NCBI RefSeq assembly: GCF_016127575.1
Contig: NZ_CP066019.1
Location: forward strand, 1,890,001 to 1,922,000
DNA: 32,000 nucleotides
Direction: 5' to 3'
DNA from: Cupriavidus necator
GTDB taxonomy: Bacteria; Pseudomonadota; Gammaproteobacteria; Burkholderiales; Burkholderiaceae
In this document: positions 2,461-27,058 of the stretch, piece after piece
Layout: each line of letters starts with the position of its first letter
Numbering within the stretch: position 1 is the stretch's first letter
Made by a program: the position numbers and the translations under genes
The notes under the pieces: generated by a model
Seen by the model: only the letters and a program-made list of their open reading frames with translations
Database searches by the model: none
Told to the model about the DNA's origin: nothing

Positions 2461-2464
<4 letters not shown>

Positions 2465-4720: not shown

Positions 4721-5749
4721 CTAGATTTCGACAACGATCTTGCCGAAATGGCGACCGGCTTCCTGGTGCCGGAACGCGGCAGGCAGTGCTTCCAGGGGAA
4801 AACTGGAATCGATCACTGGGTGCACTCCAGCCGCCTCGATCGCACGGATCATCTCCAGCTGATCCGTGCGGCTGCCGACCACAACCCCCTGCAGCCGGAG
4901 TTGCCGCGCCATGATCCGCCCCGTGTCGACACGGCCGGCCGTGCCTGCGAGCAAGCCCACGAGCGCAATGCTGCCGCCGGTCCGGCAGGCCTCGATCGAC
5001 TGGTTAAGCAGGTCGGCGCCGCCGATGTCGACAATGTGATCGACGCCCCGGCCGCCCGTCCATTGCCTGGCCGCGCGCCCCCAGTCCGGCTCCGCCTTGT
5101 AGTGGATCACGTGGTCCGCCCCGAGCGCGCGAAGACGCTCCAGCTTGCCCTCGGAGGATGAGGTCGCAATCACCGCTGCCCCCCTCGTCTTGGCGAACTG
5201 CAGCGCGAACACCGACACCCCGCCCGTGCCCTGGACAAGCACCACATCGCCAGGACCGATGCCGCCACAGCATCCAAGTGCGCGCCACGCGGTCAGGCCG
5301 GCGCAGGGCAGGGTTGCGGCTGCCGCCAGCGAGAGGCCAAGCGGCACGCGCGTCAGGGCGGCCGCCGGCACCACGGCAAACTGGCGCGCGTACCCGTCGA
5401 CGTGTTCCCCGGCAACGGCGCCATGCTTCCACTGGGCGGGTGCCCCTTCGCGCCAGTGACGAAAGAACGTCCCCAGCACCAAATCGCCCACGCGCCATGC
5501 CATGGACGGATCCGCCTCACCCCCGTGTGGCGGTCCTACCTCAACAACTTCGCCCGCGCCGTCGGACAAGGGGATACGGCCCTCGGCAGTCGGCATGCGG
5601 CCCGTCACCACGAGGTAGTCGTGGAAGTTCAGCGAGCTGCCGCGCACCCGCACCAGCACCTCCCCGGGTCCCGGACGACCCGGCTCCTCATCGAATGGCA
5701 CCAGTTGATCGATGCCGGCGGGCCGTCCCAGGCGTATCGCTGTGGCCAT
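4721..5749 (-). CDS. zinc-type alcohol dehydrogenase / NADPH:quinone oxidoreductase-like (MDR superfamily)
   Basis: MATAIRLG...GEVLVRVRGSSLNFHD is a zeta-crystallin/QOR-like N-terminus. The nucleotide fold is VLVQGTGGVSVFALQFA. I chose the ATG at 5749 (AGGA upstream). An alternative ATG at 5794 overlaps the upstream ALDH stop by 1 nt (TGATG), so the start is uncertain. Confidence 0.85.
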   Translation of the reverse strand: MATAIRLGRPAGIDQLVPFDEEPGRPGPGEVLVRVRGSSLNFHDYLVVTGRMPTAEGRIPLSDGAGEVVEVGPPHGGEADPSMAWRVGDLVLGTFFRHWREGAPAQWKHGAVAGEHVDGYARQFAVVPAAALTRVPLGLSLAAAATLPCAGLTAWRALGCCGGIGPGDVVLVQGTGGVSVFALQFAKTRGAAVIATSSSEGKLERLRALGADHVIHYKAEPDWGRAARQWTGGRGVDHIVDIGGADLLNQSIEACRTGGSIALVGLLAGTAGRVDTGRIMARQLRLQGVVVGSRTDQLEMIRAIEAAGVHPVIDSSFPLEALPAAFRHQEAGRHFGKIVVEI

Positions 5750-5793
5750 GTCTATGGTCCTGTAAAGATCCCGGGCGTCCAGCCGGCTGCGCA

Positions 5794-7215
5794 TCAGGCA
5801 CGTAGCTGGATTGCCTTGTACTCAAGAAATTCTTCCAATCCGTAAATTCCGTTCTCGCGACCTTGTCCGGATTGCTTATATCCGCCGAACGGAGCCAGGG
5901 GGTTCCAGCGGCCGCCGTTGATGTCGACCTGGCCCGTGCGCAATTGCCGCGCGACACCGAGAGCACGATCATCCGTTCCGGCCCAGACAGCGCCCGACAG
6001 TCCATATATCGTGTCATTGGCGATATTCACGGCCTCGGCCTCGGAGTCATAAGGAATGATCGTAAGTACGGGGCCGAAGATCTCTTCCCGTGCAACCGTG
6101 CTCCGAGGATCCGCGACGAACACCGTGGGCCGGACGAAATACCCGTCACCGGTGCCGGCCGGGGCCTCGGGTCCACCGGTCACGAGTTCGGCGCCTTCTT
6201 CGAGGCCGAGGCGAATGTAGCTGAGCACCCGGTCCCGATGCGCTGCCGACGCCAGCGGACCCAGCTTTACGCCTTCGGCAAAGGCACTTCCTACGACAAA
6301 CGAATCGGCTGCCTGGCGCGCCAATTCGCGTGCGTGGTCCAGGCGGTCTCTAGGCACCAGCATGCGAGTCCATGCTGCACAGGTCTGGCCTGAGTTCAGA
6401 TAGCAGTGTGAAACGGTGGCTTGGACGGCCTTCGCGAGGTCGGCGTCGTCAAGCACAATCGATGCGCTCTTTCCGCCCAACTCCAGCGAGATGCGCTTGA
6501 TCGTCTCCGAGCCGATCCTGCTAACCTGCTTGCCGGCGCGCGTTGACCCGGTAAACGAGACCATGTCCACCTCTGGGTGCGCTGCCAGTGCCTCACCGAC
6601 CAACGGACCGAGACCCGTCACCAGATTGAATACTCCCGGCGGCAGGCCGGCCTCATGAATGACCTCGGCAAGAACGAAGGCATTGAGTGGAGCGATTTCA
6701 GACGGCTTCAGGACAACCGTGCACCCACTGGCAAGCGCCGGCGCGATCTTCTGCGTGATCTGGTGCAGCGGATAGTTCCAGGGCGTGATGGCGGCGACCA
6801 CCCCCACGGGTTCGCGCACAACCATTGAGTTGCCAACGCGCGCTTCATAGTCAAACTGCTGTGCCAGTCTCGCGTAGTACGCCCAGGAATTCGCGGGCGC
6901 GGCGACCTGGACCAGTGAGCAGGCCCGCAGCGGCGTACCGACCTCTGTGGCAATCAGCCGCGTCAACGCGTCACCGCGTTTCAGCAGGCCATCGGATACC
7001 TTTTGCAGGACCTTCGCACGATCGGCTGACGAGGTCTGAGACCATCCGGGGAAAGCCGCACGCGCTGCACTGACGGCCGCATTCACGTCCGCCTCGGAGC
7101 CGGCAGGGATGGTGGCAAAGAGGTCGCCCGTGTTCGAGTCTGTCACCTGCAGTGTCCCGGCAGAGGACGGCGTCAGCCAATGTCCTCCAATATAGAGAGT
7201 GGTGCGTTCGATCAT
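5794..7215 (-). CDS. NAD(P)+-dependent aldehyde dehydrogenase
   Basis: 473 aa. ALDH hallmarks are present: ITPWNYPL, FTGSTRAG, ELGGKS, catalytic Cys in SGQTCAA, and EEIFGPV. Confidence 0.9.
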   Translation of the reverse strand: MIERTTLYIGGHWLTPSSAGTLQVTDSNTGDLFATIPAGSEADVNAAVSAARAAFPGWSQTSSADRAKVLQKVSDGLLKRGDALTRLIATEVGTPLRACSLVQVAAPANSWAYYARLAQQFDYEARVGNSMVVREPVGVVAAITPWNYPLHQITQKIAPALASGCTVVLKPSEIAPLNAFVLAEVIHEAGLPPGVFNLVTGLGPLVGEALAAHPEVDMVSFTGSTRAGKQVSRIGSETIKRISLELGGKSASIVLDDADLAKAVQATVSHCYLNSGQTCAAWTRMLVPRDRLDHARELARQAADSFVVGSAFAEGVKLGPLASAAHRDRVLSYIRLGLEEGAELVTGGPEAPAGTGDGYFVRPTVFVADPRSTVAREEIFGPVLTIIPYDSEAEAVNIANDTIYGLSGAVWAGTDDRALGVARQLRTGQVDINGGRWNPLAPFGGYKQSGQGRENGIYGLEEFLEYKAIQLRA

Positions 7216-7233
7216 GTAACAGTCTCACGTCGC

Positions 7234-8838
7234 TCAATCAGCATGCGGAAGATCCGACCCCGCCTGCCGCCACTGAGCCAGGACTTCTCGCTTGGCGACC
7301 TTGCCGGCAGCATTCGTTGGCAGTGCCTCGGCGCGCAGCCACCAGCGGGAGGGCACTTCATGCCGCCCGAGCAGCGCGGCAGCATGGGCGCGCAGGCGCT
7401 CAGGCGTAACGGTGGTACCCGGCCTTAAGACAACAACGGCGCCGACTTCCTCGCCAAGGTCGGCGTGCGGCAGTGGCACGACCGCTGCTTCGACCACATC
7501 GCCGTGTTGAAGCAGACATTGCTCGACTTGCGCGCATGCGATGTTCTCCCCTGCACGGATGATGATGTCTTTGGAACGGCCAACCAGGTACAGGTAGCCC
7601 TCGGCATCGAGCCAGCCGCGGTCGCCCGTGGCAAACCATCCGTCCGGACCGGTCATCGGCTCAGGGTTGCGAAGGTAGCCCCGGGTCATCGTGGCGGTGC
7701 GCACCATGATCTCCCCTACCCCCGCGTCGTCAGGGGCGTCGATCCTCACCTCGGCCAGGGGTAGCAGCCTGCCAACACACCCTTTGGGCCGGCCTTCGAT
7801 CTCTGCGCTCGATCCTGCCGCCAGGACACCGCCAGCCTCCGTCATCCCATACAGGCTGCCCACCCGCTTTTGCATGGACGGGAACGCCTTCTGGATCCTG
7901 GCGCGAAGATCGTCGGACAGAGCCGCGCCACCCATCGGGATCGACCTCAGGCTGGTGGTATCGAAGTTGCCGAACAGTTCGTGCTCCACCACGCGCGAAA
8001 CCATCGTGGGCACACTGCCCCAGACGCGCACCCTTTCCTGCTCGATGAGCCTCAGCACCGTCACCGGATCGAAGCGTCCCTCCAGCATCACCAGGGTCCC
8101 GCCGGTCAGCAGGGTGGTCGTGGCGATCTGGATGCCTCCCATGTGGAACAGCGGCATGGTCAGCAGGCTGATGGTCCCCGACGCCTCGGGCGCGAGTTCG
8201 TCAGGCAGGCGCCCGGTCAGGACCAGAAGATTCTGGATATTGGCGATGAATGACCGGTGCGAGATCACCACCGCCTTGGCATCGCCCGTGGTGCCGGAGC
8301 TGAACATGATAACGGCGGTCTCGTCCTCCATGTCAGGCGCAGGCTCCGGGCATGGAAACGCCGCAGTCGTGTTGCGCAAGGCCGCGCCAATCTCATCGAA
8401 GGAAGTGGTCAACCACGGCCCCCGGGGCGACGCCGTCGCCCTGTCCGTAATGAGCAGCGTCGGTTCAGCCAGCTCCGCGCAAGCTTGCGCCTGTGCATTG
8501 CCCCACATTGCATTACCAAGGACTGTCACGCCGCCAAGACATTGCACCGCCCAGAACACAAGCAGCCACTCCAGGCTGTTATGGCCCAGCAACATCACGC
8601 TCGTCCTGCGGCCAATCCCCTGCGCGGCCAGGAAGCCGGCGACGCGCCGTACGGCGCATTCGAATTCCCGGGTGCTCAGGCGCAGTTCACCTTGCACAAT
8701 GAACGGACGGTCTGCCCAGCGGCGCGCGTCGAGCAGAAACTCGGCCAGTGACGTCGGACGATATGTATAGACCAGTGTTGAGTAGTTCTCAACTCTTGCT
8801 CTCGCGACCTCGCGAGACCAGCGTCGTGGGGTGATCAT
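7234..8838 (-). CDS. AMP-dependent acyl-CoA synthetase/ligase (ANL superfamily)
   Basis: Motifs found: FSSGTTGDAKAV (AMP-binding P-loop), YGMTEAGG, GDRGWLDAEGYLYLVGRSKDIIIRAGENI, and a C-terminal GKVAKRE lysine. The track ORF extends to 8967, but its first 43 codons are Arg/Pro/Trp-rich. The ATG at 8838 was chosen, and the start is uncertain. Confidence 0.85.
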   Translation of the reverse strand: MITPRRWSREVARARVENYSTLVYTYRPTSLAEFLLDARRWADRPFIVQGELRLSTREFECAVRRVAGFLAAQGIGRRTSVMLLGHNSLEWLLVFWAVQCLGGVTVLGNAMWGNAQAQACAELAEPTLLITDRATASPRGPWLTTSFDEIGAALRNTTAAFPCPEPAPDMEDETAVIMFSSGTTGDAKAVVISHRSFIANIQNLLVLTGRLPDELAPEASGTISLLTMPLFHMGGIQIATTTLLTGGTLVMLEGRFDPVTVLRLIEQERVRVWGSVPTMVSRVVEHELFGNFDTTSLRSIPMGGAALSDDLRARIQKAFPSMQKRVGSLYGMTEAGGVLAAGSSAEIEGRPKGCVGRLLPLAEVRIDAPDDAGVGEIMVRTATMTRGYLRNPEPMTGPDGWFATGDRGWLDAEGYLYLVGRSKDIIIRAGENIACAQVEQCLLQHGDVVEAAVVPLPHADLGEEVGAVVVLRPGTTVTPERLRAHAAALLGRHEVPSRWWLRAEALPTNAAGKVAKREVLAQWRQAGSDLPHAD

Positions 8839-8912: not shown

Positions 8913-9099
8913 ATGGCCCCACGCGGTACCGACCATTGACCGGGATACCCCGATGCTGATCGCACATCGCATGGGTAGTAGTAGACCCCGTGCGCTGGCG
9001 GCGATCAACACAGCGGAGCGAACAAGAGTACTTCGCCAGGCGAGAGATGCAGCGCGTACCGGATTGGGCGACGTGATTTCGCCGACCGGGAATCGCGCC

Positions 9100-10068
9100 C
9101 TACAGACGTTGCGCGCGCCTGCCTGCCAGCGCCTGCGCGGCTTCGTCCAGGCGCGGCTGGCTCACGGTCATGCCACTCCAGCCCACGGGAAGTACGCGGG
9201 ACAGGAACTCGACGAACGCCTTCACTTTGGCGTTCCGGCCCTGTGCTGGCGGGTAGACCGCGTACAGGGTCTGCCCGCGCGCGACGTACCCGGTCAGGAC
9301 CTGTTCAAGGCGCCCGACTCTGACGTCAACATCGAACAGGATCGATGGGCCCTGGCCCAGCCCCAACCCGGCAAGAACCGCTTCCCGGTAGTTGTCGCTG
9401 TTGTCGAACGCCAGGTTGCCTTTCACGGGCGCCAGGCGTTCTCCCTCCGGCGTCTGAAAGAGCCACGAGCGCCCGCCATGAAAGAGGTCCGCAGTCAGGC
9501 AGTTGTGCGATGCCAGGTCCTCGATGCGTTCGGGTCGGCCGTAGCGGTCAAGATACTCCGGCGTCGCGCAGGTGACGCGCAGGTTCCGTGTCAGCGGGCG
9601 CGCGACGAGCCGCGAGTCGGGCAAATCGCCGCCCCAGACGGCAATGTCCAGGCCGCGTCCGATCAGGTCGTGCTGCAAGCCGTCGGCTTGCGTGATCTTG
9701 AGATTGATTCCCGGATACTGCTCAACGAACTCACTGAGGCGTGGCACCACGTGCAGCCGCGCCACGATCAGCGGCAGCTGGACATGCAGCCGGCCGACCG
9801 GATCATCGCAGGCGCGTTCCAGCTCCTGTTCCGCCTCCTCCATGGAGGAAAGGATTTCGCGGCAGCGCACAAAATACGCCTCGCCCGCCGGCGTCAAAGC
9901 AAGCTTTCGGGTATTGCGCACGAGCAGCGGCACGCGCAATTCCTGCTCCAGGCTTGCGATCCGCCGGGTCAGAATGGACGCCGTCACGCCGAGCTGGCGA
10001 GCGGCCGCCGAGAAGCCTCCCCTTTGCGCAACGGCGACGAAGGATTGAATAGCCGCGAACTTATCCAC
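9100..10068 (-). CDS. LysR family transcriptional regulator
   Basis: GTG start with AGGAG upstream. The N-terminal wHTH is FVAVAQRGGFSAAARQLGVTASILTRRIASLEQELRVPLLVRNTRKLALTPAG. 322 aa with a LysR substrate-binding type C-terminus. Confidence 0.9.
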   Translation of the reverse strand: MDKFAAIQSFVAVAQRGGFSAAARQLGVTASILTRRIASLEQELRVPLLVRNTRKLALTPAGEAYFVRCREILSSMEEAEQELERACDDPVGRLHVQLPLIVARLHVVPRLSEFVEQYPGINLKITQADGLQHDLIGRGLDIAVWGGDLPDSRLVARPLTRNLRVTCATPEYLDRYGRPERIEDLASHNCLTADLFHGGRSWLFQTPEGERLAPVKGNLAFDNSDNYREAVLAGLGLGQGPSILFDVDVRVGRLEQVLTGYVARGQTLYAVYPPAQGRNAKVKAFVEFLSRVLPVGWSGMTVSQPRLDEAAQALAGRRAQRL

Positions 10069-10126
10069 TAACCTTTGCTCCTGCGCCCACTACTGCACTG
10101 CACTGCGCGCACGACATCCAGGCCAA

Positions 10127-10924
10127 TCAGCTTCCCTTGAATTGCGGCGCGCGCCGCTCGGCGAATGCCTTGCAACCTTCGACAAAGTCCTCGCTCGCGA
10201 AGCAGGCAGCAATAGATTCGTCCCAACGCTCAGTATTCCAGTCCGCGGATGACCTGTCCAGATCACGGTCTATCAGCTTGATTGCCCGGACAGTCAGGGG
10301 TGCTGCGGCGGCAATGGCGGCGGCCACGCTCCTGGCTTCCGCAGCCAGGTCCCCATCGGGCACGACCGTATTGACAAGTCCAATGCGCAGCGCTTCCGAA
10401 GCAGAGAACTGGCGTCCGGTCAGGAGGATTTCCTTCATGAACGCCGGCCCGACGAGCGAACGGATCTTCGCCATACTGTCACCCGGATAGCCAACTCCCA
10501 GCTTTACAGCAGGAATGCCAAACCGCGCCGTTTCCGATGCGATCCGAAGATCGCAACAACTCGCCAGCGCCAGTCCCCCGCCGAGGCAGTAGCCACGGAT
10601 CACGGCCACGGTCGGCTTGGCACAGTCCCAGACTGCCCGGTAAGCCTGCAGCGCACTGCGCTCGACCGTGCGCACGGCATCGGCCTGCGACAAGCGGCTG
10701 TTGAACTCGGCGATGTCGGCGCCGGACATGAAGTCGCGTCCGCCGTCGCCCTCGATCAGAATGACCCGGATATCCGGGTCACCAGCGAGCGAATCCAGGG
10801 CCGGCGCCACGTCGCGCCACATCGAGTCCGTGCCTGCGTTGCGACGGGCGATATTGCTGAACACAATCCGCCCCGTCGCACCGTCGCGCTCGAGAATCAG
10901 GTGTCCCCTGCTGTTCTCCATCAT
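10127..10924 (-). CDS. crotonase-fold protein (enoyl-CoA hydratase/isomerase family), both canonical catalytic Glu positions appear substituted
   Basis: 265 aa. Oxyanion and core blocks are FMSGADI and IRGYCLGGGLALASCCDLRIASETARFGIPAVKLGVG. In a hand alignment to GGG-x-E-L and F-G-x-P-E, both Glu positions are Ala. Confidence 0.85.
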   Translation of the reverse strand: MMENSRGHLILERDGATGRIVFSNIARRNAGTDSMWRDVAPALDSLAGDPDIRVILIEGDGGRDFMSGADIAEFNSRLSQADAVRTVERSALQAYRAVWDCAKPTVAVIRGYCLGGGLALASCCDLRIASETARFGIPAVKLGVGYPGDSMAKIRSLVGPAFMKEILLTGRQFSASEALRIGLVNTVVPDGDLAAEARSVAAAIAAAAPLTVRAIKLIDRDLDRSSADWNTERWDESIAACFASEDFVEGCKAFAERRAPQFKGS

Positions 10925-11230: not shown

Positions 11231-12424
11231 TCACACCACGTGACGCTCGCGCAGGTCCGAGATCTGTTCCGCGCTATATCCCAGTTCCATCAACACCGCT
11301 TCGGTATGCTCGCCTCGCCCGGGCGTTGCCGTGCGCATCTGGCTTGGCGTGCGCGACAACGTGTACGGCTGCGCCACGACCTTTATCTCCTGAAGCTCCG
11401 GATGCCGCAGGGATATGGCCATGCCCAGATGCTGCGTTTGCCGGTCCTCGAATACCTCGTCCATCCGGTAAATGGGGCCACAGGCAACGCTCGCCTGCTC
11501 GAAGGCCCGGATCCATTCGGAACTTGTCTTGCGCCTCGTGTATTGCGCAAGCTCGCCTTTCAACGCCTCCCGGTTCTTTGTGCGCAGTTCGTTGCTGGCA
11601 TACTCGACCCGCCCGAGCAGCTCCGGCGCCCCGATCGCATTGCACAAGCGCCGCCACATCTCCTCGCCTGCCGTGGCAATGTTGATATGGCCATCGGCGG
11701 TCGGGAACACGCCGGTTGGCGTCGCAGTGGGATGATCGTTGCCTGCCGGTTCCGGCACCTCGCCGTCCATCAGCCATCGTGCCGCCTGGTAGTCGGTCAG
11801 CGCGATCATGCCCTGCAACAGGGAGGTCTGCACCCATTGCCCACGGCCCGACACTTCACGCTCGAGCAGGGCCGTCATGATGCCGAGCGCCGCGTACAGG
11901 CCGACACCGGTATCCGCCAGCGAGATCCCGGTCCGCAACGGCGGTTGCCCCTTTTCGCCGGTGATCGCCATCAGCCCGCCCATGCCCTGCACAATCTGGT
12001 CGTAGCCTGGCCGGTCGGCATACGGGCCGTCCTGCCCGAAGCCCGAGATGCTGGCGTAGACGAGCCCGGGATTGCTGCGCTGCAAGGTTTCATAGTCCAC
12101 CCCAAGCCGGGTCTTCACGCCTGGCCGGAAATTCTCCACCAGCACGTCAGCGGCCTCGACCAGCCGCTGGAGGATCCGCACGCCTTCCGGATCCTTGAGG
12201 TTGAGCGTGATGCTGCGCTTGTTGCGATGCAGGTTCTGGAAATCCGAGCCGAGGCGGTCCCCGATCCAGCCGTCGCTGACGTCAAGCGCCTGCGGGCTTT
12301 CAATCTTGATGACATCCGCTCCCCAGTCCGCCAGCTGCCGTACCGCCGTCGGGCCCGCTCGCAGGCGGGTGAGGTCGAGTACACGAAAACGCTCGAGCGG
12401 GCCCTGCCGATTGGAGGCACTCAT
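11231..12424 (-). CDS. family III CoA-transferase (CaiB/BaiF family)
   Basis: 397 aa. FRVLDLTRLRAGPTAVRQLADWGADVIKIE is the family N-terminal signature, followed by ENFRPGV and a GxxGP-type block. The ATGA start/stop overlap with the upstream crotonase gene (12421-12424) suggests translational coupling. Confidence 0.9.
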   Translation of the reverse strand: MSASNRQGPLERFRVLDLTRLRAGPTAVRQLADWGADVIKIESPQALDVSDGWIGDRLGSDFQNLHRNKRSITLNLKDPEGVRILQRLVEAADVLVENFRPGVKTRLGVDYETLQRSNPGLVYASISGFGQDGPYADRPGYDQIVQGMGGLMAITGEKGQPPLRTGISLADTGVGLYAALGIMTALLEREVSGRGQWVQTSLLQGMIALTDYQAARWLMDGEVPEPAGNDHPTATPTGVFPTADGHINIATAGEEMWRRLCNAIGAPELLGRVEYASNELRTKNREALKGELAQYTRRKTSSEWIRAFEQASVACGPIYRMDEVFEDRQTQHLGMAISLRHPELQEIKVVAQPYTLSRTPSQMRTATPGRGEHTEAVLMELGYSAEQISDLRERHVV

Positions 12425-14212: not shown

Positions 14213-14252
14213 CGTCGTCTCCTTGTTCTGTATCCGCTGGGGCATCCAGGCG

Positions 14253-16621: not shown

Positions 16622-16676
16622 GGTTGCTCCTGTTCGTTGGCGGCGCCTGCGCGGCGAGTAGGCATCGCGCGTGACC

Positions 16677-17783: not shown

Positions 17784-18147
17784 CGCGTCGCCTCTTGTTT
17801 CCGGTCTTCAGTCGCTTGAAGTTTAGAGGCGGACGTCCGGGCGCATTGCGCCGTTTCACGAAGTTCTTACTTGCTCAATTCGAGCAATTCCTGCCCTCTT
17901 TGCATCACCAGTCCAGGCGCGCCTCGTACTGCTGCACTGCGTCAGCACGACCCTCGATCGCCGATCCATTCGGCATGCGCTGGCGCTGCATATCGCGTTT
18001 TGCGAAGTTCTCATCTTCACCGGTTCCTGTTGGTCCGGCACTGCGCCGTTCCTACACTTCCGACACGTGACCAGGGACGGCATGGTCCCCGCAATCTGCA
18101 AGGCCGTGCCACATGAACAAACCACTAAACCGGAACGCCAATCCACT
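17784..18147. promoter_or_regulatory. divergent control region between the ADH-P450 arm and the BVMO arm, with candidate operator repeats
   Basis: 364 bp non-coding. A 15-nt direct repeat, GTTTCACGAAGTTCT (17853-17867) and GTTTTGCGAAGTTCT (17997-18011), matches at 13/15. A palindrome TTGCTC-aattc-GAGCAA lies at 17871-17887. Promoter hexamers could not be assigned with confidence. Confidence 0.4.
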
Positions 18148-20217
18148 ATGTATATTGAACCTTCCAACGCAGCCATCCCATCCGCAGCCGGGACCAACCC
18201 GCTTGCAGCCAGGAGCGAACTCCGAGATGTCTTCACAAACATTGCGCGTCAACGCCAGATCGCGGAATCTGACCTTCGCAAATACCTTGCAGACGTAGAC
18301 CCGGCGCTGCTGCTAGCGTCGCTCGTGCACATCACGCGCGACCCATCGCTGCTCAGCCGCTACGCGCCTGAACTGAAGATGCCGGACAAGGGCGATCTCA
18401 TGCCTGGCGTGAAGGTCGTCGAAACGCTGAAGGGCTTCGCCCAGGTCGCCACCATCCCAGGGGCTATCCGGCAAGAGATGATCGAGCTGACGGTTGCCGC
18501 GCTGGACAAGCCCGCCTCCGAACAGACCGAATACCTGTCGGGCTACGATCTGGCGCCCGATCTGTTTCTCAAGATGGCAGCGATGGTCACCGGCGAGCCG
18601 ATCGATGCCGAGTTTGGCGACATGCTGCTCGAACAGGCAGGCTTTGTGCGCAACCAGCCCGTGCTGCCGCAGCGCGGCCGCCCGACCGAGCGTATCGAAC
18701 TGGCCATCATCGGTGCCGGCATGAGTGGCATCGCGGCCGCCATCCAGGCGAAGGACCGCGGCTTCCGCTACCGCATCTTCGATAGCAACAACAAGGTCGG
18801 TGGCGTATGGGCGGCGAACGACTACCCGGGCGTCGCGGTCGATACACCCGCCACGTATTACTCGCTGTCGTACGAACTCAATCCATCGTGGAGCAACTAT
18901 TACCCGGTGGGCTCCGAGTACCTGCGCTATCTCGAAGGCATCGTCGAGAAGCACAACATCAGTGAGTTCATCGAGCTCGAGAGCGAAATCCTGAAGATCC
19001 AGTGGATCGAAGAGGACCAGGAGTGGGAACTGATGGTGGTCAAGAAGGGGCGCGAGGCATCTCGGGTGCGCGCCACAGCAGTCATGTCATGCCTCGGCCA
19101 CCTCAACCGCCCGAACTATCCCGACCTGCAAGGCCGCGAGACGTTCAAGGGCGTATCGATTCACGCCAACCGCTGGAAGCATGACGTCGATCTGCGCGGC
19201 AAGCGCGTCGGCATCATCGGCACCGGAGCGACCGGCGTGCAGGTGATCGGCAAGATCTCGCAGGAAGTGGACCACCTCACCGTCTTTATGCGCCAGCCGA
19301 TGTGGATCATTCCCAACCAGGCGGGAGACGGGGATATTCCGCAAAGCAAGCGCTGGGCGCGCCAGTACCTGCCGTACTTCCTCCACTGGGACAGGCTGAA
19401 GTCTTACTGGACCTATAGCGACAAGGTCGGATATCCGATCGTTCGCGCAGACCCAGAATGGGCGAAGACGCACGTCTCCATCTCTCCAGCCAACGACCGC
19501 CTGATGCAGTTCTGCATCAACTACATCAACTCGTGTTTTGGCGAGGGAAGCGAACTGGCCCGGAAGCTGACGCCGGACTACGCACCGCTGGGCAAGCGAA
19601 GCGTGCGCGACCCGTATGACTTTGCCCCCGGTGGCTTCTACTACGCCCTGTCGCAGCCGAACGTGGCCCTCGAGACCAGCAAGCTGGCGCGTGTGGTGCC
19701 GGACGGCATCCTGACCGTGGACGGCAAGCTGATCGAGCTCGACGTCATCATCTACGCGACCGGGCTGACCCTCGACTGGCTGTCGCCGATCGAGGTGGCG
19801 GGACGCAACGGGGTACGGCTATCCGACGTCTGGCGCGACAACAATCCGTCCTCCTACCTGGGCGGGATGGTGCCGAAGTTCCCCAATCTCTTCATCAACT
19901 CTGGCCCGCATACCGGGGCTGGGCATGCTGGCGGGCACAACTTCATGGCGGAGGTCGTCAACCACTACGCGATGGAATGCCTGCAGTTACTGGTCGAGGA
20001 GGATGCCCGCTCGCTGGAGGTGACCCAGGAAGCGTTTGATGAACACAACCGCAAGCTCGACGAGAAGATGGCGGGGGCGATCTGGGCCTGGGAGCGGCGC
20101 GCCCACACCTATTACACCAACCAGAAGGGGCGGCCCATCCTCCCGACGCCATGGCGCCATGTGGACTTCTGGCGCATGACCCGCGAGCCCATGAAGGAAG
20201 CCTTCATCCTGCGCTGA
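18148..20217 (+). CDS. Baeyer-Villiger type flavin monooxygenase with long N-terminal extension
   Basis: FAD fold IIGAGMSGIAAA starts at 18712. Also present: GGVWAANDYPGVAVDTP, the BVMO fingerprint FKGVSIHANRW (FxGxxxHxxxW, 19144-19176), and NADPH fold IIGTGATGVQV. The start is uncertain: ATG 18148 was chosen, and the track uses GTG 18067. Confidence 0.88.
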   Translation: MYIEPSNAAIPSAAGTNPLAARSELRDVFTNIARQRQIAESDLRKYLADVDPALLLASLVHITRDPSLLSRYAPELKMPDKGDLMPGVKVVETLKGFAQVATIPGAIRQEMIELTVAALDKPASEQTEYLSGYDLAPDLFLKMAAMVTGEPIDAEFGDMLLEQAGFVRNQPVLPQRGRPTERIELAIIGAGMSGIAAAIQAKDRGFRYRIFDSNNKVGGVWAANDYPGVAVDTPATYYSLSYELNPSWSNYYPVGSEYLRYLEGIVEKHNISEFIELESEILKIQWIEEDQEWELMVVKKGREASRVRATAVMSCLGHLNRPNYPDLQGRETFKGVSIHANRWKHDVDLRGKRVGIIGTGATGVQVIGKISQEVDHLTVFMRQPMWIIPNQAGDGDIPQSKRWARQYLPYFLHWDRLKSYWTYSDKVGYPIVRADPEWAKTHVSISPANDRLMQFCINYINSCFGEGSELARKLTPDYAPLGKRSVRDPYDFAPGGFYYALSQPNVALETSKLARVVPDGILTVDGKLIELDVIIYATGLTLDWLSPIEVAGRNGVRLSDVWRDNNPSSYLGGMVPKFPNLFINSGPHTGAGHAGGHNFMAEVVNHYAMECLQLLVEEDARSLEVTQEAFDEHNRKLDEKMAGAIWAWERRAHTYYTNQKGRPILPTPWRHVDFWRMTREPMKEAFILR

Positions 20218-20313: not shown

Positions 20314-21150
20314 ATGAACCGCGGTTTGATACTTGGGGGCGGTGGCGTCCTCGGCCTCGCCTGGGAGATTGGCGTGCTCCACGGGCTTGCGTCCGGCGGC
20401 ATCGACCTGCTCGGCGCAAGCGAAGTCATCGGGACATCGGCCGGCGCATTTGCCGGCTGCGCACTCCTTGACCCGAGGGGCATTGCGTGGGCGTACGCGC
20501 GGCAGGTTGCTGCGAGCGTACAAGAGGTGCCGGTCGCCTCGTCCTCTGATGTCATCCAGACCCTGTCCGTATTGCTGACGGAATGCGCCGGCGACGCGGC
20601 GCGCGCCGGACGGCGCATCGGCGAGTTTGCGCTGGCGGCCTCATCCATTGAGGTCCGCCGGCGCCTGGCTGTCGTGCGCGACCGGCTCGACCGCGATGAC
20701 TGGCCGTCCGACCGGCTGATGCTCACCGCCATCGACGTGGACAGCGGCGAGCTGCACCTGCTTACCAGCGACTCGGGCATCGACCTGGTGCACGCTGCCG
20801 CTGCCAGCGGTGCGGCGCCGGGCATCTGGCCCGTGATCTCGGCCGGCGGCAAACGCTGGGTGGACGGCGGCAGCGTATCGGTGACCAATGCACACCTCGC
20901 ACGGAGATTCGGCCAATGCATCGTCATCTCGCCCCGGCCGGGCAACCTAACCGGCGTCACGGTGCAGTCCGAGATCGACGCCTGCGGCAAGCGCGACGAC
21001 GCCGTGCTCATTGTTCCTGACGCGAGCAGCGAAGCCGCGATCGGCCAGAACAACTTCGACCCCAGCCGGCGCCAGGTGGCCGCCGAGGCAGGGAGACGGC
21101 AGGGTAAGCAACTCGTCCGTGAAATGCCGGACGCATGGCGGGTGTGCTGA
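20314..21150 (+). CDS. patatin-like serine hydrolase (phospholipase/esterase fold)
   Basis: 278 aa. Gly-rich oxyanion block LILGGGGVLGLAWEIG, nucleophile GTSAGA (Ser codon 20437-20439), and catalytic Asp in WVDGGS (Asp codon 20863-20865). Confidence 0.85.
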   Translation: MNRGLILGGGGVLGLAWEIGVLHGLASGGIDLLGASEVIGTSAGAFAGCALLDPRGIAWAYARQVAASVQEVPVASSSDVIQTLSVLLTECAGDAARAGRRIGEFALAASSIEVRRRLAVVRDRLDRDDWPSDRLMLTAIDVDSGELHLLTSDSGIDLVHAAAASGAAPGIWPVISAGGKRWVDGGSVSVTNAHLARRFGQCIVISPRPGNLTGVTVQSEIDACGKRDDAVLIVPDASSEAAIGQNNFDPSRRQVAAEAGRRQGKQLVREMPDAWRVC

Positions 21151-21223: not shown

Positions 21224-22477
21224 ATGACAACCGAAAACGGGGACAAGGCACCCGGCCCGTGCGCAGGATTGCGCGTGCTGGAATTCGCAACCATGGTTGC
21301 CGGGCCGTTCGCCGGCCAGATGCTGGCCGATCTCGGGGCCGAGGTCATCAAGATCGAGCCCATCAGTGGCGATCCCATGCGCAAGGGGCACCCCCAGCAC
21401 CAGGGGGTCGCGGCTGGATTCGCGCTGTTCAACGGTGGCAAGCGAAGCATGTGCATCGACCTCAAGTCCCCTTCGGGACAAGCGCTGGCGCGCGAGCTGG
21501 CGTTGACTGCCGATGTGCTGATTGAGAACTTCCGCCCGGGCGTGATGGACGGATTCAGGCTCGGGCATGAGACCCTTTGCCAGGCCAATGCAAGGCTCAT
21601 CTATGCGTCAATCAATGGCTTCGGCGTCGATGGACCGTATGCCGCACGGCCCGCATACGATCATGTCGTGCAGGCGCTGAGCGGGACCATGCCGGGCATC
21701 GGCAGCCAGGACCAGCCCGAGCCCGTCCGCAATTCGGTCGTCGACAAGATTACCGCTGCCACCGCCGCACAAGCAATTCTGGCCGCGCTCGTCCACCGCG
21801 AGCGCAACGGCGGCAAGGGCCAGCGGGTCTGCGTGTCGCTGCTGGACGCCTACGCCGCCTTCATGCTGCCGGATCTGATGGTGAACCACTACTTCCAGAC
21901 GCCAAGTATCGGTGCGCGCGCCCTGCCCAACACCTACTTCCCAATCCGGACGTCGGACGGCCACGTCATGGGCCATATCTTCACCGACGAGCAGTTCAGG
22001 AATCTCTGCCGGATGTTTGACCGCCTGGACCTGATCGACGATCCCCGCTTCGCTGGTGTGAAGGAGCGCCGCGATCACTGTGAGGCGATGTGGGATGAAA
22101 TCCGGCACAGCGCGCGGCGGCTCGACACGGCCACCGTCGAGCAGCTTGCCGAGAAGCACAGCGTCCCGCTTGGGCGCGTCAACGACCTGGCCGGGTTCTT
22201 CGCCGATCCGCAGGTCCGGCACAACGGCACGTACTCGGACGATGACGATCCATTGCTCGGAAGAGTGCGTCAGCTTCGGTCCCCGATCCGCCTGGCGCTG
22301 ACGCCAGCGGCCAGCCGCCGCCGGCCGCCCCTGCTCGGGGAGGACACCAGCGCACTCCTCGCGGGCCTGGGCAAGACGGCAACGCAGATCAACCAGGCCT
22401 TTGCAAGCCGGGTGGTCGCCGGCCGCATGGACGAGGCGGATGCCGCAGGCAAGTCCGCGGTGGGAGCACAAGCATGA
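21224..22477 (+). CDS. family III CoA-transferase (CaiB/BaiF family)
   Basis: ATG at 21224 with GGGGAA upstream. GLRVLEFATMVAGPFAGQMLADLGAEVIKIE and ENFRPGV. The track start at 21011 overlaps the patatin gene and is Arg/Ala-rich. The stop overlaps the next start (ATGA at 22474-22477). Confidence 0.88.
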   Translation: MTTENGDKAPGPCAGLRVLEFATMVAGPFAGQMLADLGAEVIKIEPISGDPMRKGHPQHQGVAAGFALFNGGKRSMCIDLKSPSGQALARELALTADVLIENFRPGVMDGFRLGHETLCQANARLIYASINGFGVDGPYAARPAYDHVVQALSGTMPGIGSQDQPEPVRNSVVDKITAATAAQAILAALVHRERNGGKGQRVCVSLLDAYAAFMLPDLMVNHYFQTPSIGARALPNTYFPIRTSDGHVMGHIFTDEQFRNLCRMFDRLDLIDDPRFAGVKERRDHCEAMWDEIRHSARRLDTATVEQLAEKHSVPLGRVNDLAGFFADPQVRHNGTYSDDDDPLLGRVRQLRSPIRLALTPAASRRRPPLLGEDTSALLAGLGKTATQINQAFASRVVAGRMDEADAAGKSAVGAQA

Positions 22478-23622: not shown

Positions 23623-24522
23623 ATGAGCAGAATTGCATTCATTGGTCTTGGCAATATGGGCATGCCCATGGCCCTGAACCTTGTACGTGCGGGCCACGAC
23701 GTGCAGGGATTCGATATCTCGGAAGCCGCACTGGCCGGCTTCGCCGGACAGGGGGGGCAATCGCAGCGCAGCGTGGCAGCGGCTGTCGATGGCGCATCGA
23801 TCGTCATTTCCATCGTGAGAAATGCCGATGACGTGAAGAACCTGTACTGCACCGCAGGCGGTGTCCTGGACGTCGCCGCGCCGGGAGCCCTGCTGATCGA
23901 GAGCTCAACCATCGGACCCGCCGCCGCGCGTGCTGTCGCCGCGGAAGCGGCGCAAGCCGGCTTTGCGATGTTGGATGCTCCCGTGGCCGGCGGCCAGGCT
24001 GGCGCCCGCGAAGCGCGGCTGACATTCATGGTCGGCGGCGCGCGCACGGCCTTCGACCGCGCTGAGCCAGTCCTGCGCCAGATGGGCGCCAGAATCTTTT
24101 ATGCCGGGGCCAGCGGCAATGGCCAGATTGCCAAGCTGTGCAACAACCTGATCGCCTGCGTCAGCAGCGCGGTCGTCTCGGAAGCCTTCATCCTGGGCAG
24201 CAAGCTCGGCATGGACTATCAGACGATGTACGACATCATCACACAGTCTACCGGCCAGTGCTGGACCCTCTCGCACAACTGCCCGGTGCCGGGCCCCGTG
24301 CCGTCTTCGCCCGCCAGTCGCGATTATGTCCCTGGATTTGCGGCGGATCTGATGCTCAAGGACCTCTCCCTCGTCGCGTCTGCCGCCAGTGAGGTTGGCG
24401 CCGCGACACCGTTTGGCGCCAGGGCCATCCAGCTGTACCGGCAGCTAAGCGAATCTGGCCTTGGCGCCCGCGATTGGACCGTAGTTGCCAGGTTGATCGA
24501 AAACAGCGCTTCTCTCAATTAA
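23623..24522 (+). CDS. mmsB: 3-hydroxyisobutyrate dehydrogenase
   Basis: IAFIGLGNMGMPMALNL (Rossmann fold), ESSTI, LDAPVAGGQAGAREARLTFMVGG, catalytic Lys block GQIAKLCNNL, and the MmsB-like stretch CPVPGPVPSSPASRDYVPGF. 299 aa. Confidence 0.8.
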   Translation: MSRIAFIGLGNMGMPMALNLVRAGHDVQGFDISEAALAGFAGQGGQSQRSVAAAVDGASIVISIVRNADDVKNLYCTAGGVLDVAAPGALLIESSTIGPAAARAVAAEAAQAGFAMLDAPVAGGQAGAREARLTFMVGGARTAFDRAEPVLRQMGARIFYAGASGNGQIAKLCNNLIACVSSAVVSEAFILGSKLGMDYQTMYDIITQSTGQCWTLSHNCPVPGPVPSSPASRDYVPGFAADLMLKDLSLVASAASEVGAATPFGARAIQLYRQLSESGLGARDWTVVARLIENSASLN

Positions 24523-24546
24523 TGCTGCATAGCCCAGGAGACCTCT

Positions 24547-26046
24547 GTGTCAGCTAACCCCCTCCATCCCAATCTCAACGCGGAAGATCTGGCCCTGGCC
24601 CTGAGTGGGCACAATTTCATCGACGGCGAGCTTGCGCCCACACGCTCGGGCAGGACGTTCGCCGTGATCAATCCCGCCACCGGCCGCAAGATCGCGGATG
24701 CGCCCTTCAGCGTTGCCGATGACGTGGATCTCGCCGTCCATGCCGCGCAGCGCGCCCAGCGCGAATGGGCCGATACACCGGCGCGCAGGCGCGGCGCCCT
24801 GGTCATTGAATGTGCCCGGCTGCTGGCCTCGCACGTCGAGGAGCTGGCACGGCTTGTGACACTCGAGACCGGCAAGGCGATTCGGACCGAAAGCCGTCCC
24901 GAAGCGGAAGGTATCGCCGACATGCTGCAGTACTACGGCGGCCTGGCCCCGGAGCTGAAGGGCGAGACCGTGCCCCACCGGCCGGATGTCCTGACGCTCA
25001 CCGTGCGGGAACCGCTCGGCGTCGTTGGCGCGATTTTGCCCTGGAACGCGCCAATGTACATCCTGGCGATGAAAATCGGACCCTCGCTCGTGGCCGGTAA
25101 CACTGTCGTGGTGAAATCTGCCGAGGAAGCACCCCTGGCAGTGTTGCGCGTGTGCCAGATCCTGAGCCAGGTGCTGCCCAAGGGTGTCCTCAACGTGGTT
25201 GCCGGCTATGGCCCTGAATGCGGCGCGCCGCTGGTCGCGCATCCCGGTGTGCACAAGGTCACTTTCACCGGCTCCGTGGAAACAGGCAAGATCATCTACA
25301 AGACAGCGGCCGACAAGCTGATCCCCGTCACGCTCGAGCTTGGCGGCAAGAGCCCGATGATCGTCATGCCCGACGCTGACCTGGATCAGGCTGCCGCCGG
25401 CGCGGTGGCCGGCATGCGGTTCACCCGCCAGGGCCAGAGCTGCTCGGCCTCCAGCCGGATGATCGTGCACGAGTCGGTGCATGACGCATTTGTCGGCAAG
25501 GTGAAGGCGCTGGTCGATGCCATGAAGATTGGCGATCCGATGGACGAGGCCACGGACATCGGCACTATCATCTCGCCAGCCCAGTACGACAAGGTGTGCG
25601 GATACATCGAAGCGGGACGATCCCTGCCCGGCACAACCGCGGTGGAATGCTCGACATTGCCAGCAGACCTGGCGCTGGGAGCCGGACTGTTCATCCGCCC
25701 TGTGATGTTCACCGGCCTGACCAATGATAGTAAGCTGGCGCGCGAAGAGATCTTCGGTCCGGTCGTCTGCGTCATGAAATTCTCGAGCTACAGGGACGCG
25801 TTGGCGATGGCCAACGACACAGACTACGGCTTGACGGCGTCAGTCTGGACCCGGGATCTGAAGACGGCGATGGATGCCAGCCTGAGGCTTCAGGCCGGCT
25901 TCGTCCAGGTAAACCAGAATCTCGTAGCCCAGCCTGGCCTCTCGTATGGCGGCTACAAGAATTCCGGCTTGGGCAAGGAGGCATCGCTTGAGGCAATGCT
26001 GGACCACTTCACACAGATGAAGACCATCCTCGTGAATCTCGCATAG
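24547..26046 (+). CDS. NAD(P)+-dependent aldehyde dehydrogenase
   Basis: GTG start with AGGAG 6 nt upstream. ILPWNAPM, FTGSVETGK, ELGGKSP, catalytic Cys in QGQSCSA, and EEIFGPV. 499 aa. Confidence 0.88.
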   Translation: MSANPLHPNLNAEDLALALSGHNFIDGELAPTRSGRTFAVINPATGRKIADAPFSVADDVDLAVHAAQRAQREWADTPARRRGALVIECARLLASHVEELARLVTLETGKAIRTESRPEAEGIADMLQYYGGLAPELKGETVPHRPDVLTLTVREPLGVVGAILPWNAPMYILAMKIGPSLVAGNTVVVKSAEEAPLAVLRVCQILSQVLPKGVLNVVAGYGPECGAPLVAHPGVHKVTFTGSVETGKIIYKTAADKLIPVTLELGGKSPMIVMPDADLDQAAAGAVAGMRFTRQGQSCSASSRMIVHESVHDAFVGKVKALVDAMKIGDPMDEATDIGTIISPAQYDKVCGYIEAGRSLPGTTAVECSTLPADLALGAGLFIRPVMFTGLTNDSKLAREEIFGPVVCVMKFSSYRDALAMANDTDYGLTASVWTRDLKTAMDASLRLQAGFVQVNQNLVAQPGLSYGGYKNSGLGKEASLEAMLDHFTQMKTILVNLA

Positions 26047-26050
26047 CACC

Positions 26051-26071
26051 AGCGGCGCCGCAGGCGCCGCT
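26051..26071 (+). terminator. short GC hairpin between ALDH and Bug gene (attenuator/terminator candidate)
   Basis: AGCGGCGCC-gca-GGCGCCGCT is a perfect 9-bp stem 5 nt after the ALDH stop. No U-tract follows, so it may only be a stabiliser or partial terminator. Confidence 0.3.
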
Positions 26072-26104
26072 CTGCCTCAGAAAATCATTAAGGAGACACC
26101 GGTC

Positions 26105-27058
26105 ATGAAAAATTCGATCGCGCTGCTGTTCTGTGCATTGGTCACCACAGTCTCGATGCCGTCTCACGCCAATGACAGCACGACGCCCCGTCGCCTCATC
26201 GTTCCCTATACCGCGGGCGGAGGCAGCGACACGCTTTCCAGGGCAATCGGCCAGAAGCTTTCTCAGGTACTGGGCGAACCTGTTGTCGTTGAAAACCGGC
26301 CCGGGGCAAACGGCTACATTGCCGCTGGCGTTGTCGCCAAGAGCCCACCAGACGGCCGTACCTTGCTTGTCGGCGGCAATGCGCTGATTATCGGGCCGAT
26401 GTTGTACTCATCGCACAAGCTTAATGCGTTGAAGGATTTCACTCCTATTTCCAGTCTGGTCAGAGTGACTCTTGTACTGGTCAGTAGTCCGGGCCTTCCG
26501 GCCAACAATGGCCGAGAATTTGTCCAGATGGCGCGAAAAGAGAAAGGCCTGAGCTACGCCTCGCCGTCGCCGGGCATCATGTTTGCGACCGAGCAAATCA
26601 AGGCGCTGGCCGGTTTCGACCTGATGCGCGTGTCGTACCGTGGCGCACCGGAAGGCTTTATCGATGTGACTTCTGGAAGGGTATCCGTGATGTTTGACAG
26701 CGTTGCCGCGGAGCTGCCAAACATCAGATCGGGTCGCGCCAAGGCTCTTTTGGTTACCGGCGAAAACCGCCACCCTCTCCTTCCGGACGTACCGACGCTT
26801 GCTGAATCTGGCATCCCAGGCTACGTAGAGGACAACTATATCGGCATACTTGGTCCGGCCGGCATGGATCCGCACGTCGTCGATACACTGAACGCCGCAT
26901 TGCTCAAGGTCCTCCGAGACCCTGAATTCAAGGCCTTTGCAGAAAGGCTGGGATTTCTCCCTTCACCTGCATCTCCCAAGGCCTTCCGGGATATGCTCGG
27001 CGCGACCACAACGCGGTACCAACAGATTGCCAATCAGCTCGACCTCAAGCCGGAATAG
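26105..27058 (+). CDS. Bug family (TctC-like) periplasmic substrate-binding protein of a tripartite tricarboxylate-type transporter
   Basis: AAGGAGA RBS and a signal peptide (MKNSIALLFCALVTTVSMPSHA). VVENRPGANGYIAA is the Bug-family signature. 317 aa. No TctA/TctB membrane genes are in the window. Confidence 0.9.
   Translation: MKNSIALLFCALVTTVSMPSHANDSTTPRRLIVPYTAGGGSDTLSRAIGQKLSQVLGEPVVVENRPGANGYIAAGVVAKSPPDGRTLLVGGNALIIGPMLYSSHKLNALKDFTPISSLVRVTLVLVSSPGLPANNGREFVQMARKEKGLSYASPSPGIMFATEQIKALAGFDLMRVSYRGAPEGFIDVTSGRVSVMFDSVAAELPNIRSGRAKALLVTGENRHPLLPDVPTLAESGIPGYVEDNYIGILGPAGMDPHVVDTLNAALLKVLRDPEFKAFAERLGFLPSPASPKAFRDMLGATTTRYQQIANQLDLKPE

Follow-up and report, generated by a model that had tools for sequence, protein, structure and literature searches.

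A catabolic island of Cupriavidus necator without a characterised counterpart joins an older cytochrome P450 module to an older Baeyer–Villiger monooxygenase module

Do the oxygenase, coenzyme A (CoA) and aldehyde-oxidising genes that stand together on one stretch of the Cupriavidus necator genome serve a single pathway and, if so, for what kind of substrate? The stretch in question is 32,000 nucleotides long (contig NZ_CP066019.1, positions 1,890,001 to 1,922,000; hereafter the window, whose numbering is used throughout). The block of interest, at 4245–27094, lies on chromosome 2 of C. necator H16, where it corresponds in reversed orientation to about 1.968–1.990 Mb of AM260480.1 and encodes the products CAJ96515 to CAJ96534. 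A preliminary description of this DNA had read the block as one two-armed catabolic supercluster with a cytochrome P450 and a Baeyer–Villiger monooxygenase (BVMO), and had known of no characterised cluster of like composition. Our literature and database searches likewise returned no such counterpart, and we find that the block is a catabolic island that joins two older modules. When every long open reading frame (ORF) in the window was scanned against Pfam and NCBIfam, the genes described earlier were recovered at their positions (Table 1). The same scans agreed that the block holds no ring-cleavage dioxygenase, thiolase or acyl-CoA dehydrogenase.

Within Cupriavidus, the block is inherited as a unit. 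Cupriavidus sp. KK10 carries all of it on a 1.67-Mb replicon at 87% nucleotide identity, and this synteny spans window positions 4245–27094 with sharp ends, an independent measure that matches the limits claimed beforehand. All 19 of the 19 genes from the MDR-superfamily gene to the TctC gene are kept at 83–97% protein identity, with the LysR-family regulator among the best conserved (96%). KK10, whose record is unannotated, was the only syntenic match in a plasmid-database search. A metagenome contig with an 86%-identical P450 has a gene order that matches the block, and in a second metagenomic lineage an 80%-identical BVMO gene diverges from genes for an alcohol dehydrogenase (ADH), the P450, two crotonase-fold (ECH) proteins, a CaiB-type CoA-transferase and a ferredoxin, in that order. 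Base composition showed no anomaly that sets the block apart. In a profile scan of genomes with the BVMO, the matches listed were mostly mycobacterial paralogues at 42–44% identity and included no Cupriavidus genome.

Farther afield, we collected 24 loci outside Cupriavidus that encode a P450 at least 47% identical to that of the block and have at least 5 kb of flank; they include contigs of Pandoraea, Paraburkholderia, Variovorax and Pseudonocardia and many soil metagenome contigs. Beside the P450 orthologue stands an AMP-binding ligase in 22 of the 24 loci (in 12 of the 24 it is at least 50% identical, 50–57%, to the ligase in the window), a PaaX-type regulator in 20, a CaiB-type transferase in 18, an orthologue of the crotonase-fold protein ECH1 (at least 60% identical) in 14, a small ferredoxin in 12, an orthologue of a second crotonase-fold protein, ECH2, in 11 (54–65% identity) and an orthologue of the ADH in 7 (56–58% identity). 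A BVMO was found beside the P450 at none of the 24, and neither was a patatin. At 23 control loci, whose P450 is 38–45% identical, the ferredoxin alone recurs. The ECH1 orthologues directly adjoin the P450 gene and, at 67–72% identity, are better conserved than the P450 itself. Genes for TctC or MFS proteins are found with P450 orthologues as well, and TctC homologues adjoin them in two loci (L006, from Variovorax, and L007). Judged by these neighbourhoods, the P450, two crotonases, a CoA-transferase, a CoA ligase, the ferredoxin and sometimes the ADH constitute one module, which we call module A. In the block we count towards it the ADH, a reductase, the P450, ECH1, ECH2, the transferase CaiB1, the ferredoxin and a third crotonase-fold protein, ECH3, along with the CoA ligase.

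The combination of ECH1, P450, CaiB and PaaX genes was also seen in a series of metagenome and actinobacterial loci (L092, L094, L098, L102, L104, L105, L110, L111 and L138). There it stands with ECH2, ferredoxin and CoA ligase genes and sometimes with genes for ADH, aldehyde dehydrogenase (ALDH) or α-methylacyl-CoA racemase (AMACR), often with two or three ligases and two PaaX genes per locus. This set has the look of an orphan pathway, widespread and CoA-dependent, built on a P450.

Module B consists of the BVMO, a patatin esterase, a CoA-transferase and AMACR. A BVMO–patatin–CaiB2–AMACR unit is present in Paraburkholderia sp. RL17 (L008) at 73, 64, 62 and 75% identity, with a TetR regulator and no P450. 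Among the matches listed, a patatin gene adjoins the BVMO gene in all four loci whose BVMO is at least 55% identical (L008, L009, L010 and L011) and in none of the 78 below that value. On another contig the two are fused in a single 944-aa ORF (P0251; L091, 10001–12835), with a BVMO part 46% identical and a patatin part 41% identical; this contig is probably fungal, because it carries Fungal_trans and Sugar_tr genes. In Sphingomonas sp. Y57 the order is TonB receptor, GMC oxidoreductase, acyl-CoA dehydrogenase, CaiB, BVMO (74% identity), patatin, amidohydrolase and an unrelated P450, and in Frankia the BVMO and patatin genes likewise adjoin an unrelated P450. Since the P450s beside these BVMO–patatin pairs are unrelated, the theme of P450, BVMO and esterase has been assembled more than once.

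The surroundings of other BVMO homologues hint at the kind of molecule involved. A CaiB gene lies directly upstream of the BVMO gene in three loci (L010, L173 and L174), which suggests that the substrate or product of the BVMO is handled as a CoA ester. In L173 the CaiB gene precedes a 69%-identical BVMO, and MFS, acyl-CoA dehydrogenase and hydratase genes follow it. Genes for AtuA and an AtuA-ferredoxin (16558–18236 of that locus) lie 4.5 kb away. AtuA genes belong to acyclic terpene utilisation, and this proximity may be taken as a weak pointer to isoprenoid-type substrates. The MDR protein has homologues of 41–43% identity close to BVMO homologues in L010, L173 and L091. Furthermore, a relative of the aldehyde dehydrogenase ALDH1, about 50% identical, was found within 10 kb of a mycobacterial BVMO homologue (42–44%) in at least 15 loci among the matches listed (L021, L023–L026, L028, L031, L034, L035, L037, L038, L042, L043, L072 and L083). 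In the one whose gene order we inspected, L021, the BVMO gene is divergent from an operon of acyl-CoA synthetase (ACS), ADH and ALDH genes.

As had been proposed, the two arms of the block diverge from a single control region, 364 bp long. It contains a 16-nt direct repeat, CGTTTYRCGAAGTTCT, at 17852–17867 and 17996–18011, with both copies in like orientation, 144 bp apart, and one on each promoter side; a perfect palindrome, TTGCTCAATTCGAGCAA, occupies 17871–17887. Both copies of the repeat and the palindrome are kept in KK10, where the promoter-proximal flanks are conserved and the middle of the intergenic region has diverged, and we regard the boxes and the palindrome as candidate operator sites. 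Scans for consensus promoters and terminators gave nothing above shuffled expectation. The three start/stop overlaps noted previously are present in the sequence (TGATG at 5794, ATGA at 12421–12424 and ATGA at 22474–22477), the first of them hinging on the longer of two gene calls for the MDR protein (357 aa in L003; 342 aa in L001 and in the H16 GenBank record, L002). Inside the left arm lies the LysR-family gene, which the preliminary description does not mention and which likely encodes a dedicated regulator of the block. A gap of 261 bp separates it from the ligase gene, and given this gene and this gap the left arm comprises at least two transcription units. The CGTTTYRCGAAGTTCT box was not found upstream of the ACS operon.

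These observations divide the supercluster claim in two: the block is inherited as one unit in Cupriavidus, but it is a mosaic of modules that are found apart elsewhere and not one ancient pathway. By its distribution this mosaic appears to be limited to Cupriavidus and close relatives. The strongest rival to a single pathway is that two or three independent operons, namely P450/CoA, BVMO/esterase/racemase and ACS–ALDH–MDR, lie side by side and are co-inherited while serving separate substrates. We judge this possible but rather doubtful. Such juxtaposition would fit the separate occurrence of the modules in Paraburkholderia, Variovorax, Pandoraea, Sphingomonas and actinobacteria, the two regulators and the gap ahead of the ligase gene, and the absence of a CGTTTYRCGAAGTTCT box upstream of the ACS operon. 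It fits less well with a block that is sharply bounded and inherited both in KK10 and in the metagenomic lineage of the 86%-identical P450, with the renewed pairing of the P450 arm and the BVMO on the contig whose BVMO is 80% identical, or with the independent origin of P450–BVMO–patatin sets around unrelated P450s. The conserved box is common to both promoter sides, and in the far-left operon partners of the two modules are interleaved: the ligase there is orthologous to that of module A, whereas homologues of its ALDH1 and MDR proteins lie near BVMOs elsewhere. That the arms were joined functionally and not by accident belongs to the single-pathway reading, and we give it even weight with its negation.

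Table 1. Genes and control region of the block and its left neighbour, in window coordinates.
Feature	Position	Strand	Basis or remark
AraC-family regulator (Cupin_6 + HTH_18)	3746-4672	-	Pfam; flanks block
MDR-superfamily (quinone-oxidoreductase-like) dehydrogenase/reductase	4721-5794; alternative start 5749 (342 aa)	-	Pfam/NCBIfam
NAD-dependent aldehyde dehydrogenase ALDH1	5794-7215	-	PF00171, 524 bits
Acyl-CoA synthetase (AMP-binding)	7234-8838 (534 aa) or to 8967 (577 aa)	-	Pfam/NCBIfam
LysR-family regulator	9100-10068	-	Pfam
Crotonase-fold ECH3	10127-10924	-	PF00378; PRK06127, 297 bits (cut-off 291)
Small ferredoxin, Fer4_13/Fer4_15, 66-81 aa	10983-11228	-	Public gene calls, sequence
Family III CoA-transferase CaiB1	11231-12424	-	PF02515, 412 bits
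Crotonase-fold ECH2	12421-13281	-	PF00378
Crotonase-fold ECH1	13352-14245	-	PF00378
Cytochrome P450 (CAJ96525)	14253-15449	-	PF00067, 89 bits (cut-off 22.8)
Ferredoxin-FNR fusion (2x[4Fe-4S] + plant-type FNR, BoxA architecture)	15470-16621	-	Pfam
Zn-dependent ADH	16677-17783	-	Pfam/NCBIfam; first gene of left arm
Divergent control region	17784-18147	.	Between ADH and BVMO genes
Long-form type I BVMO, 689 aa, N-terminal extension of ~180 aa	18148-20217	+	Pfam/NCBIfam, motifs
Patatin-like serine hydrolase	20314-21150	+	PF01734, 62 bits (cut-off 27.7)
Family III CoA-transferase CaiB2	21224-22477	+	Pfam/NCBIfam
α-Methylacyl-CoA racemase (AMACR), 378 aa	22474-23610	+	E = 1e-114 to M. tuberculosis MCR
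3-Hydroxyisobutyrate-type β-hydroxyacid dehydrogenase (HIBADH)	23623-24522	+	TIGR01692
Aldehyde dehydrogenase ALDH2	24547-26046	+	Pfam/NCBIfam
TctC/Bug periplasmic solute receptor	26105-27058	+	PF03401

The P450 shows in translation the features by which we recognised the superfamily, which are the FxxGxHxCxG heme loop (FGVGVHRCLG), the ExxR motif (EELLR) and the acid–alcohol pair of the I-helix (AGADTT). Its nearest solved structures, an ancestral CYP125, P450cin and CYP143, are tied at about 1e-50, and solved relatives overall score 150–179 bits (E ~1e-43 to 1e-51). A named CYP family calls for more than 40% identity under the CYP naming convention. With distant scores and several families tied, placement in CYP125, CYP176 (P450cin), CYP108 or CYP143 was rejected, and none of the homologues at 50–59% identity carries a family name.

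The P450 had been credited with its own redox partners. One candidate partner is the fusion of ferredoxin and FNR domains, and the gene of a second, the small ferredoxin, had been missed. The fusion protein is probably the P450 reductase, because its gene lies between those for the P450 and the ADH and, in Variovorax (L006), where the order P450–reductase–ferredoxin recurs, between those for the P450 and the ferredoxin. Its FNR domain matches solved FNRs at 1e-48. As a candidate BoxA the protein was rejected, since it scores 429.9 bits against TIGR03224, below the cut-off of 459.2, and no BoxB-like gene lies in the window. The small ferredoxin, with a probable ATG start at 11185, carries the motif CKGHQNC...CP. 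Its pattern, CxxHxxC...CP, is typical of P450-associated 3Fe-4S ferredoxins. Electrons would thus pass from NAD(P)H to the BoxA-type FNR/2x[4Fe-4S] protein and then to the small ferredoxin, the putative proximal donor to the P450.

All three crotonases had been called atypical. Aligned with an active-site fragment of rat enoyl-CoA hydratase, they have Tyr/Glu (ECH1), Ala/Thr (ECH2) and Ala/Ala (ECH3) at the positions of Glu144/Glu164 (rat numbering), so that none of the three keeps the glutamate pair in this alignment. Instead of simple hydration, these proteins probably catalyse reactions of the isomerase, lyase, decarboxylase or retro-Claisen type. Among solved structures, CaiB1 is closest to succinate-hydroxymethylglutarate CoA-transferase (E = 1e-76).

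Several proteins of the block recall the degradation of sterol or bile-acid side chains by CYP125, FadD19/CasG, Mcr and EchA19, and a steroid-like side chain had been among the candidate substrates. In NCBIfam the ligase is matched best by the steroid-24-oyl-CoA synthetase CasG, crotonases match EchA19, the top structural match of the P450 is the ancestral CYP125, and the racemase is, by eye, about half identical to Mcr of Mycobacterium tuberculosis. However, these likenesses all fall well below family cut-offs: the ligase scores 369 bits against 750 for CasG, ECH3 and ECH2 score 193 and 145 bits against 400 for EchA19, and CYP125 ties with P450cin and CYP143. The block also lacks acyl-CoA dehydrogenase, thiolase, aldolase and steroid ring-degradation genes, and we consider a sterol pathway very unlikely.

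Turning to the right arm, the BVMO displays two Rossmann GxGxxG motifs (GAGMSG and GTGATG), the type I fingerprint FxGxxxHxxxW[P/D] in the form FKGVSIHANRW, where the next residue is K and not P or D, and, for the pattern [A/G]GxWxxxx[F/Y]P[G/M]xxxD, the segment GGVWAANDYPGVAVD, all read in translation. Its nearest structures are cyclohexanone monooxygenases (1e-55), and OTEMO is also among the matches (8e-46). A P450 and a BVMO together also occur in secondary-metabolite tailoring, as in pentalenolactone biosynthesis, and there are NCBIfam matches of the BVMO to PtlE (137 against 1100 bits) and of the P450 to pentalenolactone synthase (107 against 700). These matches are weak, no terpene synthase, polyketide synthase or nonribosomal peptide synthetase lies in or near the block, and its content is mostly CoA-thioester catabolic families plus an uptake receptor; a tailoring cassette is hardly credible here. 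The patatin-like protein has in its translation the Gly-rich oxyanion loop (GGGG) and, for the Ser–Asp dyad, the GxSxG nucleophile motif (GTSAG) and the DG[A/G] aspartate (DGG), and it may serve as the esterase for the BVMO product.

The AMACR assignment made earlier is well founded. The protein has the fold of family III CoA-transferases, its match to M. tuberculosis MCR (1x74) extends over residues 1–350, and the segments AGHDINYI and LVADFGGG align with His126, Asp127 and Asp156 of that structure; all three residues are conserved, and His126 and Asp156 are the catalytic ones. The nearest solved racemase also bears the name 2-arylpropionyl-CoA epimerase, and this brings in a further alternative, the degradation of aryl-alkanoic acids (2-arylpropionates or phenylalkanoates) by CoA activation, P450 oxidation at a side chain or substituent, racemisation of 2-arylpropionyl-CoA and attack on an aryl ketone by a BVMO like 4-hydroxyacetophenone monooxygenase (HAPMO) with its esterase. 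PaaX-type regulators at 20 of the 24 P450-orthologue loci are consistent with such a route, as are public annotations that call BVMO relatives HAPMO. Those labels are automatic, however, and the Cupriavidus block has a LysR regulator and not PaaX. Furthermore, no ring-hydroxylating or ring-cleaving oxygenase is in the block, and the fragments suggested by HIBADH and the ALDHs are aliphatic hydroxy acids. An aryl substrate seems improbable on this balance.

Of the valine-type tail that had been proposed, one half stands. HIBADH scores 322.1 bits against TIGR01692, above the equivalog cut-off of 291.6, but ALDH2 reaches only 256.4 bits against the 448.5 required by TIGR01722 and was rejected as a CoA-acylating methylmalonate-semialdehyde dehydrogenase; its best matches are betaine-aldehyde-type and other generic ALDHs. 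A reading of the locus as valine catabolism was discarded for failing curated score cut-offs. The arm ends in a receptor of the TctC/Bug family, whose members characterised so far bind carboxylates.

At the margins, the AraC gene is probably outside the core of the block. In KK10 it survives as a remnant of about 170 aa (45% identity; L090, 4377–4904), and the left synteny edge, 4245, falls inside the gene. Farther left, 1.4 kb from the block, lies an IS3-family insertion sequence (1560–2784, minus strand) with an rve integrase ORF at 1560–2279, a likely orfA at 2461–2784 and an ALIL frameshift pseudoknot at 2390–2506 (RF01497, 115 bits). The Variovorax locus L006 ends in a 239-aa rve ORF, equal in length to the H16 one and some 5 kb upstream of the P450. 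The right flank, 27205–31994, beyond the conserved block, encodes an M20 peptidase (minus strand), a second TctC (minus), a LysR regulator (plus), a BPL_N-domain protein (plus) and, truncated where the window stops, the C-terminal end of a biotin carboxylase/BCCP protein. The ORFs at 8953–10071 (plus) and 17856–18242 (minus) were dismissed as spurious, having no family match and overlapping better supported features. Public gene calls dispute the start codons of four genes, giving 577 versus 534 aa for the ligase, 357 versus 342 aa for the MDR protein, 711 versus 689 aa for the BVMO (within 18067–20217) and 313, 297 or 286 aa for ECH1 (within 13352–14332).

What might such a set of enzymes accomplish together? 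The logic put forward in the preliminary description, in which a carbon is hydroxylated and oxidised, oxygen is inserted, the product is hydrolysed and a 2-methyl-branched acyl-CoA is then processed, fits the comparative data. We favour, though with as much doubt as conviction, a single pathway for a methyl-branched and possibly isoprenoid-like carboxylic or keto acid; we infer the sequence of reactions, the substrate and the link between the arms. Uptake of the carboxylate would be helped by the TctC receptor, and the ligase or a CaiB transferase would make the acid into a CoA ester. The P450 would then hydroxylate an unactivated carbon, the ADH would turn the alcohol into a carbonyl, the BVMO would place oxygen next to the ketone and the patatin-type hydrolase would split the resulting ester. 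CaiB2 could re-activate the acid fragment as a CoA ester, whose 2-methyl centre the racemase would invert so that host β-oxidation continues, while two pairs of enzymes, HIBADH/ALDH2 and MDR protein/ALDH1, could oxidise the alcohol fragment to an acid.

Branched alkanes, one of the substrates suggested earlier, do not suit this scheme. The ties of the P450 module to a CoA ligase, CoA-transferases, PaaX regulators and TctC or MFS uptake proteins lead us to expect as substrate an acid or its CoA ester and not an alkane. Characterised PaaX-type regulators sense CoA thioesters, phenylacetyl-CoA among them.

Several points weigh against a single pathway. Modules A and B were never found together outside Cupriavidus-like genomes, with a BVMO at 0 of the 24 P450-orthologue loci, and the left arm is interrupted internally and has additional regulators (LysR and AraC). 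Paralogues of CaiB, ECH and Bug proteins are very abundant in Cupriavidus genomes, so some of the adjacency could be incidental. Lacking an acyl-CoA dehydrogenase and a thiolase, the block depends on unlinked host genes for whatever follows the racemase. No close characterised homologue pins down the substrate, the best structural matches of the P450 and BVMO being about 1e-50 to 1e-58, and the literature on the genes of the block gave no expression, genetic or biochemical data.

A bolder extension concerns the P450 orthologue group as a whole. It may represent a widespread pathway of Actinobacteria and Burkholderiales, undescribed in the literature searched, in which the P450 acts on an acyl-CoA thioester and not on a free acid or hydrocarbon, with electrons from a BoxA-type reductase, a novel kind of P450 partner, and in which the P450, the ADH and crotonases devoid of the glutamate pair together bypass the acyl-CoA dehydrogenase, hydratase and thiolase; Cupriavidus would have added a BVMO/patatin module, with a BVMO that likewise acts on CoA esters. 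We put this forward as a long shot. If it were true, methyl-branched acids that block normal β-oxidation would have an alternative route.

The single-pathway reading would also have practical weight. C. necator H16 is among the major chassis organisms in bioplastics and gas fermentation, and the block would add a route for oxidising branched or recalcitrant acids and ketones, which is relevant to terpenoid or oxidised-plastic feedstocks, together with a self-contained P450 redox chain usable in a Gram-negative host. More broadly, the analysis points to the set of P450, crotonase, CoA-transferase, CoA ligase and PaaX genes, widespread in soil bacteria, as orphan chemistry.

In the searchable literature, no paper was found for locus tags H16_B172x to H16_B176x, and the block has no main-text mention. 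On P450 and BVMO in C. necator, the only finds were plastic-degradation reviews, which offer no gene-level data. Nor did this literature contain an account of BVMO–patatin pairs, PaaX-linked P450 clusters or BoxA-type reductases as P450 partners, or a counterpart for sets of P450, racemase and crotonase or for ibuprofen P450/racemase routes.

One general likeness is to subterminal ketone oxidation, in which a BVMO and an esterase reportedly act together in Gordonia sp. TY-5 (acmAB), Pseudomonas veronii (mekAB) and Pseudomonas fluorescens ACB (hap, with HAPMO and an aryl-acetate esterase). Compared by description only, those pathways share with the block the succession of hydroxylase, ADH, type I BVMO and ester hydrolase followed by alcohol oxidation, and HAPMO, again by description, is like the block enzyme a long BVMO with an N-terminal extension. 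In contrast, the esterase of the block is patatin-like and not an α/β-hydrolase, and family III CoA-transferase genes and the gene of a 2-methylacyl-CoA racemase are in tight linkage with that of its BVMO.

The cam pathway of Pseudomonas putida combines P450cam and its redox partners with an ADH, BVMOs and a CoA synthetase, and its OTEMO acts on a CoA ester. Like the block, it is a catabolic locus in which an ADH and a BVMO accompany a P450 that has redox partners of its own, and it too ties a BVMO step to CoA thioesters; OTEMO is among the structural matches of the block BVMO. However, the cam redox chain is putidaredoxin with its reductase, whereas that of the block is a BoxA-type FNR/2x[4Fe-4S] protein with a 3Fe-4S-type ferredoxin, and the block adds crotonases, a racemase and a patatin. 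From the solved terpene P450s P450cin (CYP176) and P450terp (CYP108), the block P450 is distant (~1e-43 to 1e-50).

Actinobacterial cholesterol side-chain activation likewise brings together a P450, an acyl-CoA ligase, a racemase and crotonases, and the racemase of the block is a close homologue of M. tuberculosis Mcr. The block differs in its CasG and EchA19 scores, which lie under the cut-offs, in its BVMO/esterase arm, and in having no acyl-CoA dehydrogenases, aldolase, thiolase or KstR-type regulation. The reductase and BoxA have one domain architecture, with 2x[4Fe-4S] at the N-terminus followed by an FNR-like FAD/NAD(P)H domain, and its 430 bits come near the cut-off of 459, but stay under it, and no BoxB or BoxC gene is nearby. 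All the enzyme families in the block, and the logic of hydroxylase, ADH, BVMO and esterase, are thus already known; what is new is the combination of genes, its CoA-centred context and the redox chain.

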